A stretch of DNA of 64,000 nucleotides, from IMG/VR virus record IMGVR_UViG_3300027759_000001. One strand, written 5' to 3'. A program made the position numbers and the translations under genes. Shown one piece after another: positions 89-12,934 of this stretch; position 1 is the stretch's first letter, and the number at the start of each line of letters is the position of its first letter. The notes below the pieces were generated by a model that saw only the letters and a list, made by a program, of their open reading frames with translations, made no database searches and was not told the DNA's origin. The stretch is from a virus (Duplodnaviria; Caudoviricetes).

Positions 89-871
89 ATGAAAAAAAAA
101 ATAGCAGTTATATCAGGTTGGTATAACTTTGGGGAAAATAACGGAATTAGTGATGACAATAGGTTTATGACTAATTGTTTTTATGAAAGTGCAAAAAAAC
201 ACTTTTTACCTCATCACGATGTTGAATTTATTTTTATGAACAATAGTGATATCACAATAGATGGGGTAACAAATATAAATTTTGATTATCAAATTGAGGG
301 GTTTTGGGAAATGTGTTTAATGAAAATTTTAAGTTTAAAATTTTTAAAAAACGAATATGACTATATATTTGTTCATGATAATGATCAAGTTTACATTAAA
401 GACGTAAATAACAAAATATTAGAATCTGATTTTACATTTGTGGACCATTTTTATCCATCACCCGTTAAGGATATTTACGAACAAGTAACAGATATAGTAG
501 AACTAAACTTCAACACATCTGAAGAAAAATGGACTATGGGTAATTTTTTTGGTGGAAAACAAAAAAATATGATGGAGTTATTATCAATAACTGAAGAACA
601 AAATAAAAAATATTTTGGTTATAATTTTAATCAAAATTATTTTTATTCAAGGTATCCTGAAGAACTTTTTATTGTTAAATATGTTTATGAAAATAATATT
701 AACCATAAAAGGCTTAATACGTGTGTACATCCATTACAATCTGAGGGGGAATATTTTTTAAGCGATTGGGGTGATGATGATTCGGTTCCTTTTGAGGTTA
801 CAAACGTAAATTTATTACACAACACTAAAAAAAATTTAAATAAATTAAGAAAATTATATAAACAAAATTAA
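89..871 (+). CDS. GT6-family (ABO/alpha-1,3-Gal/GalNAc transferase-like) glycosyltransferase
   Basis: FYESAKKHFLPHHDVEF, YDYIFVHDND (DxD at D97-D99), TMGNFFGG and EELFIVKY match the motif order of GT6 enzymes (F..SA..HF..G, DxD/NxN, YxGGFFGG, DESHLNKY). Confidence 0.75.
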   Translation: MKKKIAVISGWYNFGENNGISDDNRFMTNCFYESAKKHFLPHHDVEFIFMNNSDITIDGVTNINFDYQIEGFWEMCLMKILSLKFLKNEYDYIFVHDNDQVYIKDVNNKILESDFTFVDHFYPSPVKDIYEQVTDIVELNFNTSEEKWTMGNFFGGKQKNMMELLSITEEQNKKYFGYNFNQNYFYSRYPEELFIVKYVYENNINHKRLNTCVHPLQSEGEYFLSDWGDDDSVPFEVTNVNLLHNTKKNLNKLRKLYKQN

Positions 872-880
872 AAAAATTAT

Positions 881-2218
881 ATGGAAGAAAATAAAAAAAT
901 AGTTATAGCACAATTTTTTACCACTAACCTTAGTTATGGTAAATTTACAAAAGAAATAAATAAAAAGTATTGTGATGAAAAAGGATACATATATCATTTA
1001 GAGTCCGACAATAATAAAATAAAAACTGCATTAGAAGGTAGATCCCCAACATGGTATAAACCAAAATTTATTAATGAGGTTTTTGAGTTATATAATCCTG
1101 ATTACATTCTTTTTTTAGATGCAGATGCGATAGTATGTGATTTTAGTTATAAAGTGGAAGATTTTATTGATTCAGATTATAATATTATATGTACCGAAGA
1201 TTATGGACCTAGTAAATTAAATGCTGGTGTTTTCATAATGAAAAATTCAGATTGGACAAAACGAGTAATGAATAAATGGTGGGAGACAGGTAATAATTTA
1301 GTTGGAGGACCAAATAATGAAATGGGGTTCTATAAAACGGGATTATGGCACGATCAAACTTGTTTCGGACATTTAATGGATATTATGCCCGATTCTAAAA
1401 CAAACATTAAATTAATAACTAATAAAGTATTAAACGGTAGAGAGTATAAAAATAACGTAGATAAAAATTTTATATTTCACGCCTTCTCTTATGGTATGTT
1501 ACCAAATAGAACCATTGATAAATGTTATTACGACATCTTCAATATAGATATCCCTGATGGTGAAAAATTATCTGATATTGTAGAATATTACGATACGGAT
1601 AAACATTATGAACATAATTATTTAAGATTAATTTACGATGATTTATTTCTTCCCATACGAGAAGAAGTTAAAACTTTTGTTGAGATAGGTGTGAATCATG
1701 GAGGATCTATTTTAATGTGGAGAGATTATTTTAAAAACTCAAAAGTTTTAGGGTTAGATAATAATTTACCTTTCTGTGAAGAAAAATTAAGAGATAAAAA
1801 TTTAGATCGTATTGAATTAATTAATCTTGACCAATCAATTCCTGAAATGTTAGAAACATTTGCAAACCAATATAGTGACATTGATGTTATATTAGAAGAT
1901 GGTTCACATAGAATGCACGATCAACAAATCACATTAGCAAAATTATTTAAAACATTAAAGTCAGGGGGGATATATGTACTTGAGGACTTACATACTAGTT
2001 TAGAGGCTCCGATGCCTGAAAAGGCTTGGTGTGGGTGGGGAGACTCAACAAAAACATTAACCTTAGATATGTTAAACAATTTCATATCAACGGGCAAAAT
2101 ACAATCCGATTATTTAACGGAAGATGAGATTAATTATTTAAATGATAATATTTTATCTGTAGAGATATATCAAAATAGACCCGATTGGAGTATAACAAGT
2201 GTAATAATAAAAAAATAA
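881..2218 (+). CDS. Fusion: GT34 (GMA12/MNN10-like) glycosyltransferase + class I SAM-dependent (sugar O-)methyltransferase
   Basis: N-half: WYKP, YILFLDAD (D80-x-D82), LNAGVFIMKN, WHDQ. C-half (~aa 230-445): DTDKH, FVEIGVNHGGS..MWRDYF, VLGLD, DVILEDGSH, LKSGGIYVLEDL. Confidence 0.85.
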   Translation: MEENKKIVIAQFFTTNLSYGKFTKEINKKYCDEKGYIYHLESDNNKIKTALEGRSPTWYKPKFINEVFELYNPDYILFLDADAIVCDFSYKVEDFIDSDYNIICTEDYGPSKLNAGVFIMKNSDWTKRVMNKWWETGNNLVGGPNNEMGFYKTGLWHDQTCFGHLMDIMPDSKTNIKLITNKVLNGREYKNNVDKNFIFHAFSYGMLPNRTIDKCYYDIFNIDIPDGEKLSDIVEYYDTDKHYEHNYLRLIYDDLFLPIREEVKTFVEIGVNHGGSILMWRDYFKNSKVLGLDNNLPFCEEKLRDKNLDRIELINLDQSIPEMLETFANQYSDIDVILEDGSHRMHDQQITLAKLFKTLKSGGIYVLEDLHTSLEAPMPEKAWCGWGDSTKTLTLDMLNNFISTGKIQSDYLTEDEINYLNDNILSVEIYQNRPDWSITSVIIKK

Positions 2219-3180
2219 TGATAGGTATAGTTCACCACACATTTCTTACAGGTAACTGGCAAGAAATATTAAATTCCCAAATAGAAAGACTTATATCTTC
2301 TGGGTTATATGACAACGCAGATATTATATGGTTTACTTGTAATTTAAATGGAAATGATGAAAATGTATTCACCGACTTTCTTAAAGATTACAATAAAATA
2401 CAAACCGAATGTCATGTTAATAATGGAGCTGAATACCCTGGTATTCATAAAGTAAAAGAATTAGGTGATAACAATGAGGACATGAAGATCCTTTATTTTC
2501 ATGGTAAAGGAGTTAGTAATACATATACAAATAACGAAACTAAAGAAGTTAATGAAGATAAAGTAAAAAATATACAATCATGGAGAGAGTGTTTGGAATA
2601 TTTTGTCATTGATAAATGGAAAGATTGTGTTGATAAATTAGACGAATATGATAATGTTGGTGTTACTTGTAATGGTGGTTGGTATTGGGGTAACTTTTGG
2701 TGGTCACAATCTAAACACATAAAAAAATGTAGACCCGTTGATTATTGGGGTAGGTGGGATTATGAAGCTTGGTTAAATTCGTATGTGGAAAATCAAACTA
2801 ATTATGAATTTTTTAAATTTACGTATAACCCATATGTTACTATTATACATGAGGATTGGTATAAAAAAATAAGAACTGAAAATGACCCAATTAAAATAAC
2901 GGTATTAAATGCATTTTATGGTACCCCTCCATTTGAAATTGATGAGGGTTATTCAAATATTCCATTAAATGTTACGGAAGATGTTAAGAGTGTAATAGAA
3001 GAAAAATTGAAGGAACAGAATAATGAAAAATTTTATTTTCCCGTTAATAACGAATCTATGGGTTGTGACCCATCACCTGGAAATAGAAAGTTTTTATTTA
3101 TTGAATTTTATTTAAGTAACAGTAATAACATTTATAAATTAGGACTTCATGAAGGGATGTTCTTTGACCAAAAATTTTAA
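2218..3180 (+). CDS. Putative glycan-active enzyme (LYFHGKG / GNFWW family) with C-terminal lectin-like (DP.PG..K.L) domain
   Basis: True start is likely the ATG at 2218, overlapping the previous stop (TAATG). Motifs ILYFHGKG, YWGNFWW, RWDYEAW. C-terminal NAFYG...GCDPSPGNRKFLFIEF resembles SUEL-lectin/DUF3395-like domains. Sits in the GT operon. Confidence 0.55.
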   Translation: MIGIVHHTFLTGNWQEILNSQIERLISSGLYDNADIIWFTCNLNGNDENVFTDFLKDYNKIQTECHVNNGAEYPGIHKVKELGDNNEDMKILYFHGKGVSNTYTNNETKEVNEDKVKNIQSWRECLEYFVIDKWKDCVDKLDEYDNVGVTCNGGWYWGNFWWSQSKHIKKCRPVDYWGRWDYEAWLNSYVENQTNYEFFKFTYNPYVTIIHEDWYKKIRTENDPIKITVLNAFYGTPPFEIDEGYSNIPLNVTEDVKSVIEEKLKEQNNEKFYFPVNNESMGCDPSPGNRKFLFIEFYLSNSNNIYKLGLHEGMFFDQKF

Positions 3181-3189
3181 AAAATAATT

Positions 3190-5550
3190 ATGGAAGATTT
3201 TTTTGACAAGGTTTTACACTACTATGGTAGAAAAGGTGAAAAACTATTTATGATTAACATTGGTGCAATGGACGGTGTTTTATTTGATAGTATGAGTGGT
3301 TATGCGGATATGTATAATTCAGATGTGTTATATGTGGAACCAATGAAACCTCACTTTGACAGATTGGTTAAACATAAAGGAGGTAACCCAGCTAATAAGT
3401 TTGAGAACTCCGCAATTAGTAACTACAACGGAACTATAAACATGAAAACAATTCCAATTGAGATTGTTGATCAAGGATTAGTTCATCAAGCATTTTATGG
3501 TATGAGCGTTATTGACCCAACAAAGAATGGTATGGGTAGTGAAGGAGATAGAGAAGTTGTTGAGAAGTATGCCGTAGATGTTGAGGTTAATTGCATTACT
3601 TGGGATACGTTAGTTAAAAAACACGATATAGATTATTTTGATGTATTATCTGTAGATACGGAGGGACATGACTATACAATATTCAAACAAATTGATTTAG
3701 AAAAATTTAGACCTATTTTAATACGTTTAGAATGGTGTAATATGACAGACGAAGAAAAAACTAACATCCTTAATAAATTTACCTCATCAGGATATGTTTA
3801 TGAAATTTTGGATAATATGGATATTGATGCGGTTAGAGAAGATGTGTATGAAGAAATAAAGTCAAAATTAGAACCAAAACAAATAATTGAAACCTCAAAC
3901 TCAAAACTTACATTAGTGACAGGTCTTTGGGATATTGGAAGAGGTGACCTTCAAGAAGGGTGGTCTAGATCATTTCAACATTATTTAGATAAATTTCAAC
4001 AACTATTACAGGTTGATGTGAATATGATAATATTTGGAGATAAAGAATTAGAAGAATTTGTATTAAACAATAGAAGTAGTGAAAACACACAATTTGTAAT
4101 CAGGGATTTATCTTGGTTTAAAAATAATGATTTTTATGATAAAATACAAAAGATAAGAACTAACCCTGATTGGTATAATCAAATTGGTTGGTTAACAAAT
4201 TCTACACAAGCTAAATTAGAAATGTATAATCCTTTGGTAATGTCCAAAGTTTATCTTTTACACGATGCAAAGATTTTAGATAAGTTTGATTCAGAATATA
4301 TGTTTTGGATTGATGCTGGTTTAACAAATACAATTCATCCAGGATACTTCACTCAAGATAAAGTTTTAAATAAATTACCTCAATTGGTTAAGAATTTTCA
4401 CTTTGTTTGTTTCCCTTATGAAACAAATAGTGAAATACATGGATTTAAATATCAAGAGTTGTGTGATTTAGCGGGTAAACCTGTTAATATGGTTGCTAGA
4501 GCTGGTTTCTTTGGTGGAAAAAAAGATGTTATTTCTGAAATCAATAGTATATACTATGGATTAATGAACGATACTTTATCACAAGGGTTAATGGGAACTG
4601 AAGAGTCGTTATTTACAATTATGACCTACAAATATCCTAATTTAATAACGTATTCCGAAATAGAAAATAATGGTTTGATGGGTAAATTTTTTGAGGATTT
4701 AAAAAATATGACGGTTGAAACTAAAATTAATGATATTGGTAGTGAGATAGGATTATATGTTATTACGTTTAATTCACCAAAACAATTTGAGACTCTAATT
4801 GAGTCAATGTTAGACTACGATCCATCATTCGTAACTAAAACTAAAAAATATTTACTTAATAACTCAACAGATTTAACGACAACCGAAAGATATATTCAAC
4901 TATGTAACCAATATGGGTTTGAACATATTAAAAAAGATAATATTGGTATAACAGGTGGAAGACAATTTATTGCTGAACATTTTAATGAACAAAATAATTT
5001 AAGTCATTATTATTTTTTTGAGGATGATATGTTTTTTTATAATGGGGGAGATATAACTTGTAAAAATGGATTTGTTAGAAAAATAAAAAACATATTTGAC
5101 AACACATTAAAAATAATAAAAGAAGAAAATTTTGATTTTTTAAAGTTAAACTTTAGTGAATTTTATGGTAGTCACAATAAACAATGGGCTTGGTATAATG
5201 TTCCACAATCTTTCAGAGAATCCCATTGGGTAAACAATCCAAGATTACCCGAACATGGTTTGGATGCTAACTCACCTAATTTAGAATTTAAACACATAAA
5301 ATCTTATAATGGAATACCATATGCTACAGGTGAAATTTATTTGTGTAACTGGCCAATAGTCATGTCAAAAGAAGGTAATTACAAATGTTATCTTAAAACA
5401 AAATATGGTATGCCTTATGAACAAACTCTTATGTCCCATTGTTATCAAGAAATGGTAAAGGGTAATATAACGGGTTCTGTATTACTTTCAACACCAACTG
5501 ATCACAATAGATTTGATTTTTATGATGGTAATTTGAGAAAAGAATGTTAA
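3190..5550 (+). CDS. Triple fusion: FkbM-family methyltransferase + HtrL/YibB-like domain + GT-A (GT2-like) domain
   Basis: aa ~1-215: INIGAMDG, YVEP, DVLSVDTEGHD (FkbM). aa ~238-510: LTLVTGLWDIGR, YNPLVMSK, MFWIDAG (HtrL/YibB). aa ~520-786: LYVITFNS, NIGITGGRQ, YFFFEDD (E611-D613; GT-A). Confidence 0.8.
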   Translation: MEDFFDKVLHYYGRKGEKLFMINIGAMDGVLFDSMSGYADMYNSDVLYVEPMKPHFDRLVKHKGGNPANKFENSAISNYNGTINMKTIPIEIVDQGLVHQAFYGMSVIDPTKNGMGSEGDREVVEKYAVDVEVNCITWDTLVKKHDIDYFDVLSVDTEGHDYTIFKQIDLEKFRPILIRLEWCNMTDEEKTNILNKFTSSGYVYEILDNMDIDAVREDVYEEIKSKLEPKQIIETSNSKLTLVTGLWDIGRGDLQEGWSRSFQHYLDKFQQLLQVDVNMIIFGDKELEEFVLNNRSSENTQFVIRDLSWFKNNDFYDKIQKIRTNPDWYNQIGWLTNSTQAKLEMYNPLVMSKVYLLHDAKILDKFDSEYMFWIDAGLTNTIHPGYFTQDKVLNKLPQLVKNFHFVCFPYETNSEIHGFKYQELCDLAGKPVNMVARAGFFGGKKDVISEINSIYYGLMNDTLSQGLMGTEESLFTIMTYKYPNLITYSEIENNGLMGKFFEDLKNMTVETKINDIGSEIGLYVITFNSPKQFETLIESMLDYDPSFVTKTKKYLLNNSTDLTTTERYIQLCNQYGFEHIKKDNIGITGGRQFIAEHFNEQNNLSHYYFFEDDMFFYNGGDITCKNGFVRKIKNIFDNTLKIIKEENFDFLKLNFSEFYGSHNKQWAWYNVPQSFRESHWVNNPRLPEHGLDANSPNLEFKHIKSYNGIPYATGEIYLCNWPIVMSKEGNYKCYLKTKYGMPYEQTLMSHCYQEMVKGNITGSVLLSTPTDHNRFDFYDGNLRKEC

Positions 5551-5556
5551 TTGCAA

Positions 5557-5563
5557 TATTTAT
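5557..5563 (+). promoter_or_regulatory. TATTTAT motif (putative late promoter)
   Basis: 14 nt before ATG 5578; context AATATTTATTGTAAAA is also found at 22913. Confidence 0.6.
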
Positions 5564-5577
5564 TGTAAAATCAAATA

Positions 5578-6300
5578 ATGGAATTTTACATTAAGAAAAA
5601 TGCTACGTTACCCGTTTTAAAGATGCAAGTCGTTAAAGACGGTAGAAGTGATTATAATAAGATGATGGAAATGATTGAGGAATCTTCTATCTTCTTTTCA
5701 ATGGTAGATACTGAGACTGGAATTCCAAGAATTGTTACAAGACCCGCAGGATTTGTTGAGAAAACATTATTGGACCCAAATGCTGAGTATGAGTATTATG
5801 TTTATTATCAGTTCACATCAAATGATACAAGAAAAGTTGGTAGATATGAAGGTCAGTTCTTATTAAGAAATTCAGATGGCACATTAATTTTACCAATCAG
5901 AGAAAAACTTTATATAAACGTACAAGAAAGTTTCATTGCGGATGATCTTCCGTATGAATCTTGTTATGTTGTTGGTTTCCCTTGTTGTGCTAGTATACCT
6001 ACAACAACTACAACCACAACAACACCTTGTCCTAGTTGTAGGGCTTGTTGCCCACCAACTCCAACACCATTACCGACAACAACAACTACTACATATATAC
6101 CAATCACAACAACAACAACAATCCACAATGATTTTGTTGTTTTAGACATACCAGAAAATGATGTAAACTTTGGTTTAGTAATAACTAATTTAGTTCCTAT
6201 AGAAATACCTGAAGATGATGTAAACTTTGATTTGGTTATTACAAATTTAGTCCCTATAGAAATACCTGAAGATGATGTAAACTTTGATTTAATAATTTAA
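5578..6300 (+). CDS. Probable virion protein: BppU-N-like domain, Thr/Pro/Cys-rich linker and C-terminal 19-aa repeats
   Basis: N-terminal FYIKKNATLP.L...G.YEGQF resembles baseplate-upper-protein N domains; PTTTTTTTTPCPSCRACCPPTPTP linker; preceded by TATTTAT. Confidence 0.55.
   Translation: MEFYIKKNATLPVLKMQVVKDGRSDYNKMMEMIEESSIFFSMVDTETGIPRIVTRPAGFVEKTLLDPNAEYEYYVYYQFTSNDTRKVGRYEGQFLLRNSDGTLILPIREKLYINVQESFIADDLPYESCYVVGFPCCASIPTTTTTTTTPCPSCRACCPPTPTPLPTTTTTTYIPITTTTTIHNDFVVLDIPENDVNFGLVITNLVPIEIPEDDVNFDLVITNLVPIEIPEDDVNFDLII
6148..6300 (+). repeat. Coding tandem repeat, 57-bp unit x ~2.7 (IPE[N/D]DVNF[G/D]LVITNLVPIE)
   Basis: Units start at 6148, 6205 and 6262; differences are mostly synonymous. 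Confidence 0.95.
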
Positions 6301-6346: not shown

Positions 6347-7438
6347 ATGATACAAGGAATAAGAATTACAAGTCAAAATTTATCGGGGGATACCGCTAAT
6401 GTTACTTTTAACCCACAAACGGGTGGTACAATTAATTTAGGTACACAAACAATACCTTTTAATAATATCACAAATTATCCTTATGGTACTTATGAATTAT
6501 TTGTACCTGAATTTAATTACACATATGATGTAATTGTCCCAGCCCCGCAAAATGGTCAGGATGCATATACGACAACAGTTAGAGACGTTACAATAGATGG
6601 TGGATTAAAACCATTCTCAGGAGCGGTATTATCTGAAGTATGGGGGACATATACAACTGATTATATTACAAATCAAGGAATACCATCAACATCTATTGTT
6701 TTAGCTGAAGGTATTTGTTCTGATGATGTTGACGCATCAAAAGTACCATCAAATATTGGTCAATGGCCAAATAGTATTAATTCGTTTTTAGGTCCATTTA
6801 TGTCAGGTGGATTAGCGGGATATCCATTTGTGGGTAGTGTTGGTTTTGGGGCATTTGCAAGTCACGTAGCAACAAGTGGTGCTACCGAAACAAATGCCAC
6901 TTTATTTGTTACGAGTATGCCACATATTGGTGTGACTGAAGATGGTCGTTCAGGAAGAATGTTACGTAGAGGTAAAGCTGATAGTATAACAGATAATACT
7001 TGTGGTGCAGTTTGGGGAGCAATTAACCAAGTTGTAAATGTTTTATCAGCACCTCCAAGTCAAAGTAATCCACCATTTGATAATGGTAATTATTCTTTTT
7101 GGAAGTTAACAGATATTTTATGGCCATTTAAAAACGTATTATCAGGATTTACAGGAACTAGTGAGGAAATATATAATAAACAAATGATTTTTGCGACAGA
7201 AACAATTAGAGATGCCGCATATGATTATATTATTGATGTTTTACCAAGTCAAGTGACGGGTAACACACAAAACGATGTATATTTTTTAAGTGGTATTTTT
7301 ATCAATACTGATGTTATTCCTGACAGTACATTACAATTTGAATCTTATGTTGTTGTTGATAAAGTTATGAAATATGAATTTGGTATTGGTTGGAGTGATA
7401 TTACCATTAGTTATAACACTGGATTACCAATTGACTAA
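6347..7438 (+). CDS. LCIB/LCIC-type (theta/beta-like) carbonic anhydrase domain with N-terminal beta-rich extension
   Basis: ICSDD (C124), GGLAGYPFVG..GFGAFASHV, PHIG (H193), G..G...RRG, TCGA (C219): the motif series and Cys-His-Cys Zn ligand set of the LCIB_C_CA family. Confidence 0.8.
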   Translation: MIQGIRITSQNLSGDTANVTFNPQTGGTINLGTQTIPFNNITNYPYGTYELFVPEFNYTYDVIVPAPQNGQDAYTTTVRDVTIDGGLKPFSGAVLSEVWGTYTTDYITNQGIPSTSIVLAEGICSDDVDASKVPSNIGQWPNSINSFLGPFMSGGLAGYPFVGSVGFGAFASHVATSGATETNATLFVTSMPHIGVTEDGRSGRMLRRGKADSITDNTCGAVWGAINQVVNVLSAPPSQSNPPFDNGNYSFWKLTDILWPFKNVLSGFTGTSEEIYNKQMIFATETIRDAAYDYIIDVLPSQVTGNTQNDVYFLSGIFINTDVIPDSTLQFESYVVVDKVMKYEFGIGWSDITISYNTGLPID

Positions 7439-11845: not shown

Positions 11846-12934
11846 TTATTTTGTTCTTAACAAATATAATTCGTTAACAAATTCCCAATTAACGTGATTC
11901 CAAAAATTATTTATATATTCGTCACGTTTATTACGATATTTTAGATAGTATGCGTGTTCCCACACATCAAGTCCTAATAGTGGATACCCACCATCTTTGA
12001 CTACATTCATTAATGGATTATCTTGATTAGATGTGGAAATAATTTTTAATCTATTATTTTTAGTTAAAATTAACCAAGCCCACCCTGATCCAAATCTATC
12101 TTTAGCAACCTGATTAAATTCATCTTTTAATTTTTTAATATTTCCGTATTGTTTTGTAATTTTTTCAAATACTTCACCACTTGGTTTTTGTTTGGTTGGA
12201 CTTAACATTTTCCAAAATAAAGCGTGATTAAAGGCACCACCAGCATTATTTCTAACTTTAGTATCATACTTACTAATATTTTTGATTATGTCTTCTAATT
12301 CAACATCACCTTTTTTATTTGATAACGCATCATTTAATTTCTTAACATAACCTTTATAATGTTTGTTGTAATGGATATCCATAGTTTCAGGATCTACAAA
12401 TTGTTTCATTGATGAATATGAATATGGTAATTTTTCAATACCAATTTTTTTCATTTCCATTATAAAATCTTTTTTGATATTTTGTTTTTCTGAAATTAAA
12501 ATTTGTTCATTAATAAGATTAATTTTATTGTTAATCCCTTTAAACCCTTCAAAAACATATTCATTAAATTGTGGGTATTCTTCTTCAAACATTTTAATTA
12601 GTCGGCCACCATATGCATTTGCTTCATCTTCATTCTGACCACCAATGTTTGGACCTTGTTCTCTTTTAAGAACATTTATTTGGTAAGCATGAACCCACTC
12701 ATGAGCTAATGTTCTCATTATATCACGATTTAATCTACCATCAGTTAATACTTTAATTCCATTTTTTGGGTGTTGACTACCTGTAGACATTCCACCTATT
12801 TTTTTACCCACAAATTGAATAGTGATATCCTCCTTTAATTGATAATTCTTTTGTAAGAATTTAATAAAGGTGTGAATTAACTCGTTATACTTTGAATCAA
12901 GTCCTGAATTTATACGTTTGATGCTTACTTTCAT
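11846..12934 (-). CDS. Fusion: zincin-like HExxH domain + Mn/Fe superoxide dismutase
   Basis: aa 78-82 HEWVH with downstream NEDEANA. aa ~164-362: LPYSY, DIHYNKH, NNAGGAFNHALFW, FGSGWAWL, NQDNP, LDVWEHAYY (all four SOD metal ligands present). Confidence 0.92.
   Translation of the reverse strand: MKVSIKRINSGLDSKYNELIHTFIKFLQKNYQLKEDITIQFVGKKIGGMSTGSQHPKNGIKVLTDGRLNRDIMRTLAHEWVHAYQINVLKREQGPNIGGQNEDEANAYGGRLIKMFEEEYPQFNEYVFEGFKGINNKINLINEQILISEKQNIKKDFIMEMKKIGIEKLPYSYSSMKQFVDPETMDIHYNKHYKGYVKKLNDALSNKKGDVELEDIIKNISKYDTKVRNNAGGAFNHALFWKMLSPTKQKPSGEVFEKITKQYGNIKKLKDEFNQVAKDRFGSGWAWLILTKNNRLKIISTSNQDNPLMNVVKDGGYPLLGLDVWEHAYYLKYRNKRDEYINNFWNHVNWEFVNELYLLRTK

Follow-up and report, generated by a model that had tools for sequence, protein, structure and literature searches.

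A strain-variable operon for building and methylating glycans in a freshwater jumbo phage, a candidate virion glycosylation system

The locus considered here lies at positions 89 to 5550 of a 64,000-nucleotide stretch of viral DNA (IMG/VR record IMGVR_UViG_3300027759_000001; Duplodnaviria, Caudoviricetes), the whole of which we call the window. The segment holds four open reading frames (ORFs), designated P1 to P4, all on the + strand and separated by spacers of 9, -1, and 9 nt, the ATG of P3 at 2218 overlapping the stop codon of P2 as TAATG. A fifth gene, P5 (5578-6300), follows directly. An earlier sequence-only reading had described four tightly spaced, co-oriented genes forming a glycan-building and methylating operon that abuts a gene with a Thr/Pro linker; the gene arrangement and the Thr/Pro runs in P5 were confirmed, and the domain evidence supports the functional description well. 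That reading had counted about four glycosyltransferase (GT) domains of the GT-A type, two different S-adenosylmethionine (SAM) methyltransferases, and a lectin-like domain. All of the domains that it named are present, but the number of GT-type domains in P1 to P4 is five, accompanied by two O-methyltransferase domains for sugars and a single lectin domain of the rhamnose-binding type. None of the proteins P1 to P5 has a hydrophobic segment, the maximum 19-residue hydropathy (KD19) being no greater than 1.1.

The source phage is a jumbo myovirus of low GC content (~30%), and its P4-bearing contig spans 291,788 bp. Pfam and PHROG scans of the window identified structural genes for a tail sheath and baseplate wedge proteins, along with genes for a family B DNA polymerase, a DnaB-type helicase, a gp32-like protein, and both ribonucleotide reductase subunits. 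The sheath belongs to the T4 superfamily, and its nearest matches are in a Microcystis phage, Flavobacterium phages, and an uncultured 484-kb phage. Near-identical DNA was found in at least 14 DNA sequencing runs, drawn from ~10 studies of freshwater and sediment, and IMG/VR has at least 577 related stretches. A DNA-level search of cultured phages returned a single weak match only. Metatranscriptome contigs from four freshwater runs align to P1 to P5 with few differences; DNA carry-over is possible in these data, and the contigs give neither strand nor level.

P1 (89-871, + strand) encodes a 260-residue protein predicted to be a GT6-like GT-A glycosyltransferase. P1 alone gave no Pfam match at E<=0.01, and the GT6 assignment came through the profile of its 32-member family, which over residues 22-200 matched bovine alpha3GalT (2vxl, E 6.5e-6) and also matched ~60 human ABO transferase entries (E 6.5e-6 to 3e-5 across the GT6 structures). 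PF03414 is carried by 10 of 33 P1 homologues. The two aspartates of the DxD motif, D97 and D99, are invariant in the family alignment and align with the DVD of 2vxl. P2 (ORF 881-2218, + strand, 445 residues) combines two predicted activities. Its N-terminal GT-A domain (881-1555), with a DAD motif, scored above the cut-offs for GT34 (PF05637, 50.5 bits against 23, E 3e-13) and DUF273 (PF03314, 37.8 bits against 30, E 2e-9), and the best solved structure was domain 1 of A064R from the chlorovirus PBCV-1 (2p6w), a weak match at E 0.063. The C-terminal domain of P2 (1568-2218) is by sequence a homologue of solved sugar O-methyltransferases, of the class I SAM-dependent TylE/MycE/CmcI type, and it carries a SAM-binding glycine motif, EIGVNHGG. 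It matched the deoxysugar O-methyltransferases TylE (8ia9, E 4.9e-16) and MycE (3ssm, E 3.7e-13) as well as CmcI (E 0.007), and scored 27.1 bits against PF13578, for which the cut-off is 26.3.

P3 (ORF 2218-3180, + strand) encodes 320 residues, the same size as its homologues. The AlphaFold model (pLDDT, the predicted local distance difference test, of 94) places a GT-A fold in residues 1-243 (2218-2946), a domain related to DUF8361. A fold search returned 109 chains with Z>=8, and the top rows were all GT-A transferases (Z 13.3-11.5, ~160-170 residues aligned, root-mean-square deviation 2.7-3.5), led by PmHS2 (Z 13.3), chlorovirus HAS (12.2), and KfiA (12.1). No DxD or other acidic pair follows the strand at residues 90-95 of P3; the sequence YFHxKG stands in its place, with Y93, H95, K97, and G98 invariant. 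This lack of a DxD is compatible with a metal-independent GT-A enzyme or with another activity, and we treat P3 as a putative transferase. Its C-terminus (2878-3180) is a putative lectin of the SUEL or L-rhamnose-binding type, and here the family profile matched lectin CSL3 (2zx0, E 1.1e-5) in two stretches, of which the best covers residues 221-310, and 5h4s at E 0.0055. A population variant of this phage (locus L085, 12130-13092) has P3 called as two ORFs of 102 and 195 residues, which suggests a disrupted copy.

P4 (ORF 3190-5550, + strand) is the largest product, with 786 residues and three predicted domains. An N-terminal FkbM methyltransferase domain (3190-3900) scored 50 bits against PF05050 (cut-off 22.7) and 46.6 against TIGR01444 (cut-off 37.7). 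The middle, a WlaTC/HtrL-type HtrL/YibB domain (3904-4720), scored 70.9 bits against PF09612 (cut-off 24.1). Against the YibB equivalog model TIGR02192, P4 scored 74.5 bits, below the cut-off of 264.9, and therefore the YibB domain is shared but orthology to E. coli YibB is not. The C-terminal domain (4732-5550) appears to be a GT2-like GT-A domain with NSTD and EDD motifs, in which N44/S45 and E97-D98-D99 are conserved and whose language-model neighbours carry GT2. The domain itself does not match PF00535; 6 of 22 relatives do (best E 1.8e-5). Of the families proposed by the sequence-only reading, GT34, PF09612, and PF05050 were thus recovered above their cut-offs and GT6 by way of a family profile, and GT2 appeared among these relatives and the language-model neighbours. 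Sequence searches of the PDB with P4 alone, the HtrL-domain profile, the P4 C-terminal profile, the GT60-like protein described below, and the P5 N-domain profile gave nothing usable.

Contigs of the same phage that carry exactly P1 revealed that the operon extends 5' of the first base of the window. The upstream genes, which were scanned against Pfam only, encode in order a LamG-type protein, a GT9 enzyme, two fibre-type proteins, a (Thr-X)n protein, a GT60-like protein, a GT92 enzyme, and a stand-alone FkbM protein, followed by P1. The two fibre-type proteins end in SPRY/fibrinogen-like and legume-lectin-like domains, and one has a TP linker. The (Thr-X)n protein comprises 721 residues, 42% of which are Thr. 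The gene for the 415-residue GT60-like protein starts 62 nt after it, and the spacers from that gene through P2 are 3-10 nt. The GT60-like protein matched PF11397, the GT60 polypeptide N-acetylglucosamine (GlcNAc)-transferase family, at E 3.4e-72. P1 to P4 are the downstream half of a larger operon headed by this GT60-like gene. In L085 (2410-5093) and in related loci, the fibre-type proteins share an N-terminal domain of ~60-115 residues and differ in their lectin-like ends (LamG, SPRY/fibrinogen-like, or legume-lectin-like), which suggests swappable heads on a common handle.

We compared the locus with two sets of viral contigs, the DNA polymerases of which are 65-99% identical to that of the window. 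Set 1 consisted of 80 related contigs retrieved with P4 as the query, and set 2 of 69 further contigs (identity 64-96%) retrieved with an alignment of the P4 C-terminal domain; because set 2 yielded close relatives only, the co-occurrence counts are phylogenetically non-independent. Across these ~150 contigs the layout is constant, consisting of the GT60-like gene, a cassette of glycan genes, a core encoding the HtrL and GT2-like domains of P4, and P5 or its homologue, a protein with an N-terminal domain resembling BppU_N and a Thr/Pro-rich tail. The GT60-like gene was present in 74 of the 80 set-1 loci, and the remaining six have at most ~2.1 kb upstream of P4, which is shorter than the GT60-to-P4 distance of most loci. 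Of the set-2 loci, 50 have 7 kb or more of upstream DNA, and the gene was found in 48 of these. A P5 homologue lies downstream of the P4 core in nearly all set-1 loci and in 65 of 67 in set 2.

Between the GT60-like gene and the P4 core stand 0 to 7 genes, all co-oriented, and in minimal loci the two adjoin directly. The 167 cassette ORFs fell into 73 clusters at 40% identity. Those that were recognisable include the transferase families GT25, GT34, GT10, PLOD-type GT, GT2, and GT4, as well as FkbM, Methyltransf_23/24, carbamoyltransferase, DegT aminotransferase, HAD, and GNAT proteins. P1 was found in none of the 80 set-1 loci and P2 and P3 in ~15; genes 1 to 3 of the window vary between loci and are therefore part of the cassette. 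P4 likewise lacks its FkbM domain in near-identical strains and has a TylF-type methyltransferase instead in others, and strains with 99% identical polymerase differ by entire genes. In one such strain, G001, GT92, the stand-alone FkbM gene, P1, and the FkbM domain of P4 are all absent. The GT60-like gene, the P4 core, and P5 make up the conserved portion, and the variable cassette includes P1 to P3 and the FkbM domain. The upstream extension, the strain variability of P1 to P3 and the FkbM domain, and the conserved pair of GT60-like and HtrL/GT2-like enzymes all lay beyond the view of the sequence-only reading. A further variant, L088, has P4 in a 551-residue form without FkbM.

P5 begins with an Ig-like domain of ~135 residues (5578-5982, + strand), with a mean column identity of 73% among homologues over its first 135 residues, which end in a Cys-Cys junction. 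The tail that follows (5983-6300) has a Cys-rich junction, Thr/Pro runs (T8, T6, and T5), and three short repeats, and is a candidate O-glycan acceptor. Beyond the N-domain, hypervariable Thr or Thr-Pro runs are present in most homologues; some have large distal domains and reach 1231 residues in total, and a few are the bare N-domain. The N-domain was modelled with a pLDDT of 79 as an Ig-like sandwich whose best fold matches are the baseplate of phage NF5 (Foldseek E 6e-4, template-modelling (TM) score 0.51), the N-terminal domain of BppU from lactococcal phage TP901-1 (Z 7.8 and 7.5), a baseplate protein of staphylococcal phage 80alpha, and a phage neck protein. Of 43 P5 relatives, 3 gave weak Pfam matches to BppU_N (best E 0.042), which serve only as a lead next to the fold matches. 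Scores of this size reach the level of common folds, and the domain is therefore named BppU_N-like and not a member of that family. The N-domain is probably an anchor to the particle. It had no match among cultured phages, and because its homologues are absent from them, no virion proteome bears on it.

A ATATTTAT motif at 5556-5563 (+ strand), 22 nt before the P5 start, is a candidate late promoter, and it recurs ahead of the genes for the tail sheath and a gp13-like neck protein and of other structural genes. The sheath gene (PHROG 23; 17053-20394, + strand) encodes an unusually long protein of 1113 residues, in which the sheath-family match is confined to residues ~820-1111. The N-terminal 800 residues hold unassigned domains and a Thr/Pro-rich insert near residues 283-325 (~17900-18030), a second candidate acceptor and one that lies in a genuine virion protein. 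The Thr/Pro tracts in the sheath, P5, and neighbouring proteins are candidate acceptors, and we infer both that these tracts would be glycosylated and that P5 would be part of the particle.

A search of 50,697 cultured phage records located the GT60-like protein and the P4 core in an identical set of four, namely the Xanthomonas phages XacN1 and Xoo-sp13 and the Stenotrophomonas phages CM1 and RAS14, with identities to the source phage of 44-47% for the GT60-like protein and 42-45% for the HtrL+GT2-like enzyme. The two annotated Xanthomonas records have the GT60-like gene, a carbamoyltransferase gene, two unknown genes, and the P4 core in that order (XacN1 ORF334-ORF330; Xoo-sp13 304-300), and ORF330, the P4 core of XacN1, is annotated as hypothetical. 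As in the source phage, the pair of conserved enzymes encloses a cassette, the gene order is kept, and XacN1 has a GT9 gene nearby; the cassettes differ, that of the source phage encoding GT92, FkbM, the GT6-like enzyme, the GT34-methyltransferase fusion, and the GT-A-lectin protein, and no P5 homologue lies downstream in the XacN1 group. The XacN1 polymerase was not among the matches to the source phage polymerase, nor was XacN1 among the best tail-sheath matches. The cultured phages are not close kin by polymerase or sheath, and therefore the module is shared across lineages. A search for (TP)4+ tracts gave 5 matches in XacN1 and 8 in Xoo-sp13 (control pattern, 0), and one of the XacN1 (TP)n tracts is in the 3313-residue ORF325 beside the cluster. 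XacN1 virions contain at least two periodate-Schiff-positive glycoproteins, which its authors suggest are made by phage glycosyltransferases (PMC5852040).

The sequence-only reading had proposed a methyl-capped glycan placed either on virion proteins or on the host surface. Of these options the virion is the better supported, because a conserved GT60-like polypeptide GlcNAc-transferase heads the operon, because Thr-rich fibre-type proteins flank it on both sides, because the tail sheath carries a Thr/Pro insert, and because XacN1 has the same two conserved enzymes together with periodate-Schiff-positive virion proteins. We consider it probable, on balance, that the operon products work in the cytoplasm, attaching mucin-type O-glycans to the Thr-rich stalks of proteins of the phage particle and capping these glycans with methyl groups. 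Which proteins are modified, with which sugars, in what order, and to what effect on the particle is proposed here from sequence and context. In such a pathway, the GT60-like polypeptide N-acetylhexosamine-transferase would place the first sugar on Thr residues of the Thr/Pro-rich stalks, for which P5 (5578-6300), the upstream (Thr-X)n protein, and the tail-sheath insert are the candidate acceptors. The variable cassette (GT92, FkbM, P1, P2, and P3) would then lengthen the chain, and methylation of the terminal sugar would cap it. Two invariant steps would be contributed by the bifunctional HtrL+GT2-like enzyme of the P4 core, to which an FkbM domain is added in this phage. Animal polypeptide N-acetylgalactosamine-transferases have a lectin domain that holds the enzyme on its glycosylated substrate, and by analogy the lectin domain of P3 may keep the enzyme on stalks that are already glycosylated.

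Glycosylation of virions by viruses is already known for chloroviruses, mimiviruses, and mycobacteriophages, and is suspected for XacN1. The mimivirus fibril glycosylation clusters are virus-encoded, differ in gene content between related viruses, and decorate surface fibres; they differ in having genes for rare-sugar nucleotide-sugar biosynthesis, other acceptor proteins and linkages, and a eukaryotic host. The fusion of a GT to a methyltransferase has a worked-out viral precedent, by analogy, in A064R, in which two GT domains and one methyltransferase add two rhamnoses to the capsid glycan of PBCV-1 and methylate the last one (PMC9614988). A064R, which finishes the capsid N-glycan together with A061L, resembles the window proteins in being a soluble, virus-encoded, multidomain enzyme that joins GT-A to a methyltransferase, and its first domain, of GT34-like fold, is the weak structural match noted above for the N-terminus of P2. 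The PBCV-1 system differs in its eukaryotic algal host, in the N-linkage of the glycan to the major capsid protein, and in having neither a GT60 initiator nor a Thr-rich acceptor, and the homology of its enzymes to the window proteins is marginal at best.

In mycobacteriophages, according to Freeman et al. 2023 as cited in PMC12619734 and PMC12582341, phage-encoded glycosyltransferases O-glycosylate virion proteins, with glycans at the C-termini of capsid and tail-tube subunits. These phages are siphoviruses that infect Actinobacteria, and they typically carry one or two glycosyltransferase genes. We know of no GT60-like enzyme, methyltransferases, or hypervariable cassette in those systems. 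A parallel for initiation comes from GT60 enzymes, which make GlcNAc-alpha-O-Thr on Trypanosoma cruzi mucins (PMC9472816). The operon-heading enzyme matches the family model of the T. cruzi and Dictyostelium (Skp1 Gnt1) enzymes, and their known acceptors, Thr residues in Thr-rich mucin-like repeats, correspond to the Thr runs encoded around the phage operon. Known members are eukaryotic Golgi or cytoplasmic enzymes, whereas the phage gene lies outside the window and is assigned as a polypeptide transferase by family match. In the literature searched, we found no description of a GT60-like initiator, of a fixed frame around a variable cassette, of methyl-capping fusions, or of a link to Thr/Pro stalks.

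The main competing explanation, which we regard as unlikely yet serious, is that the enzymes remodel an envelope glycan of the host during infection (lipopolysaccharide core, O-antigen, capsule, or S-layer), thereby blocking superinfection or keeping progeny off debris, with the Thr-rich genes being merely co-located hypervariable host-range genes. Several of the families present weigh in its favor and against glycosylation of the particle, since GT9, GT25, and HtrL/YibB are best known from lipopolysaccharide synthesis, FkbM too is typical of lipopolysaccharide and O-antigen loci, and HtrL occurs in Acinetobacter outer-core loci. The strain-level turnover of the cassette is like that of O-antigen loci, and a comparative study of jumbo phages proposed that variable glycosyltransferase clusters modify outer polysaccharides of the host (PMC7824862). 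Phage seroconversion modules of the Gtr, Wzy, and Oac types, however, depend on a membrane-embedded transferase, flippase, or polymerase, none of which is apparent in P1 to P5 by hydropathy, and the Pfam census of the 73 cassette clusters yielded no flippase, polymerase, ligase, or initiating phosphoglycosyl transferase family, so that neither group offers a membrane-spanning or lipid-carrier component. The invariant first enzyme, moreover, is from a family known only for polypeptide acceptors, and the genes are placed among late-type structural genes. We think it quite improbable that the glycan is instead put on phage proteins outside the particle, such as released or cell-bound Thr-rich decoys or adhesins, or on host proteins. 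The place of P5 in the virion is itself a prediction, and the absence of its N-domain homologues from cultured phages means that proteomes do not cover it; against this, a Thr/Pro insert is present in the tail sheath, the P5 N-domain is most similar in fold to baseplate and neck proteins, and XacN1 virions stain for glycoprotein. Hypermodification of DNA bases with a methylated oligosaccharide would fit the frequent action of phage glycosyltransferases on DNA, and 4 of 22 relatives of the P4 C-terminal domain weakly matched a TET-associated glycosyltransferase family (best E 0.023). That match does not reach significance, and the GT-A fold is common to the two families. Such a pathway would have no use for a lectin domain or for Thr-rich neighbours, and no base hydroxymethylase was found among those window ORFs that were scanned against Pfam or PHROGs. 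To our knowledge, none of the families GT6, GT34, GT60, GT92, GT10, and GT25 acts on DNA, and we consider this last explanation very unlikely.

Other observations count against mucin-type glycosylation of particle proteins. P5 is assigned to the particle by a fold match of intermediate quality (Z 7.8, TM 0.51) and by a motif that resembles a promoter, and Thr/Pro linkers are common in phage fibres without a neighbouring glycosyltransferase. The stained bands of XacN1 were neither identified nor tied to its glycosyltransferases (PMC5852040). Synteny among kin can stem from shared ancestry and not from function. Most P5 tails are of the Thr/Pro type, but one sub-lineage (L066-L068 and L073) keeps the GT60-like gene and the P4 core though its P5 is without the Thr tail, and no Thr/Pro-rich ORF was present within the 12-22 kb retrieved. 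This sub-lineage is unexplained by the reading that we favor.

Several features of the neighbouring DNA were also recorded. A motif of the form (A/G/T)TATTTAT stands 13-45 nt before many structural-gene starts, and 11 of its 24 forward-strand occurrences are within 45 nt of a start codon; sites include 5556, 6310, 17008, 20451, 22914, 24933, and 47072 on the + strand and 11841 and 12947 on the - strand. As a candidate late promoter, it is similar to the late TATAAATA box of T4. A gene for an Fe/Mn superoxide dismutase (11846-12934, - strand; PF00081 E 3e-20, PF02777 E 2e-39) with an N-terminal extension of ~165 residues sits among the structural genes and is preceded by the ATATTTAT motif. An ORF at 6347-7438 encodes an LCIB/theta-type carbonic anhydrase domain (PF18599 E 1.7e-27) with a short N-terminal domain in front; this N-terminal domain (residues 1-64) is joined to other proteins in related loci, and in strain G001 a 651-residue ORF takes the place of the carbonic anhydrase gene. 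The N-terminal extensions of these two enzymes, the dismutase and the anhydrase, showed no similarity to each other.

Returning to glycosylation of the particle, we tentatively put forward a broader proposal, that this abundant freshwater jumbo lineage and, separately, the XacN1 group may have a self-contained cytoplasmic mucin-type pathway. Its GT60-like and HtrL/GT2 enzymes would be fixed, and the rapid exchange of transferases and O-methyltransferases in the cassette between them would give each strain its own virion "glycotype" on the Thr/Pro stalks of plug-in fibres, a viral counterpart of the O-antigen serotypes. Since cultured relatives exist in XacN1, Xoo-sp13, CM1, and RAS14, the idea is directly testable. 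Glycosylated particle proteins have been documented in only a handful of phages, and little is understood of the biology of this modification. If the proposal is true, phages recurring in freshwater metagenomes would have a modular, strain-variable glycosylation pathway whose GT60-like initiator belongs to a family otherwise characterised in protists. Such a pathway would supply glycoengineering with a set of transferase/O-methyltransferase fusions that are soluble, and would account for the frequency of Thr/Pro stalks in the fibre-type proteins of these phages.

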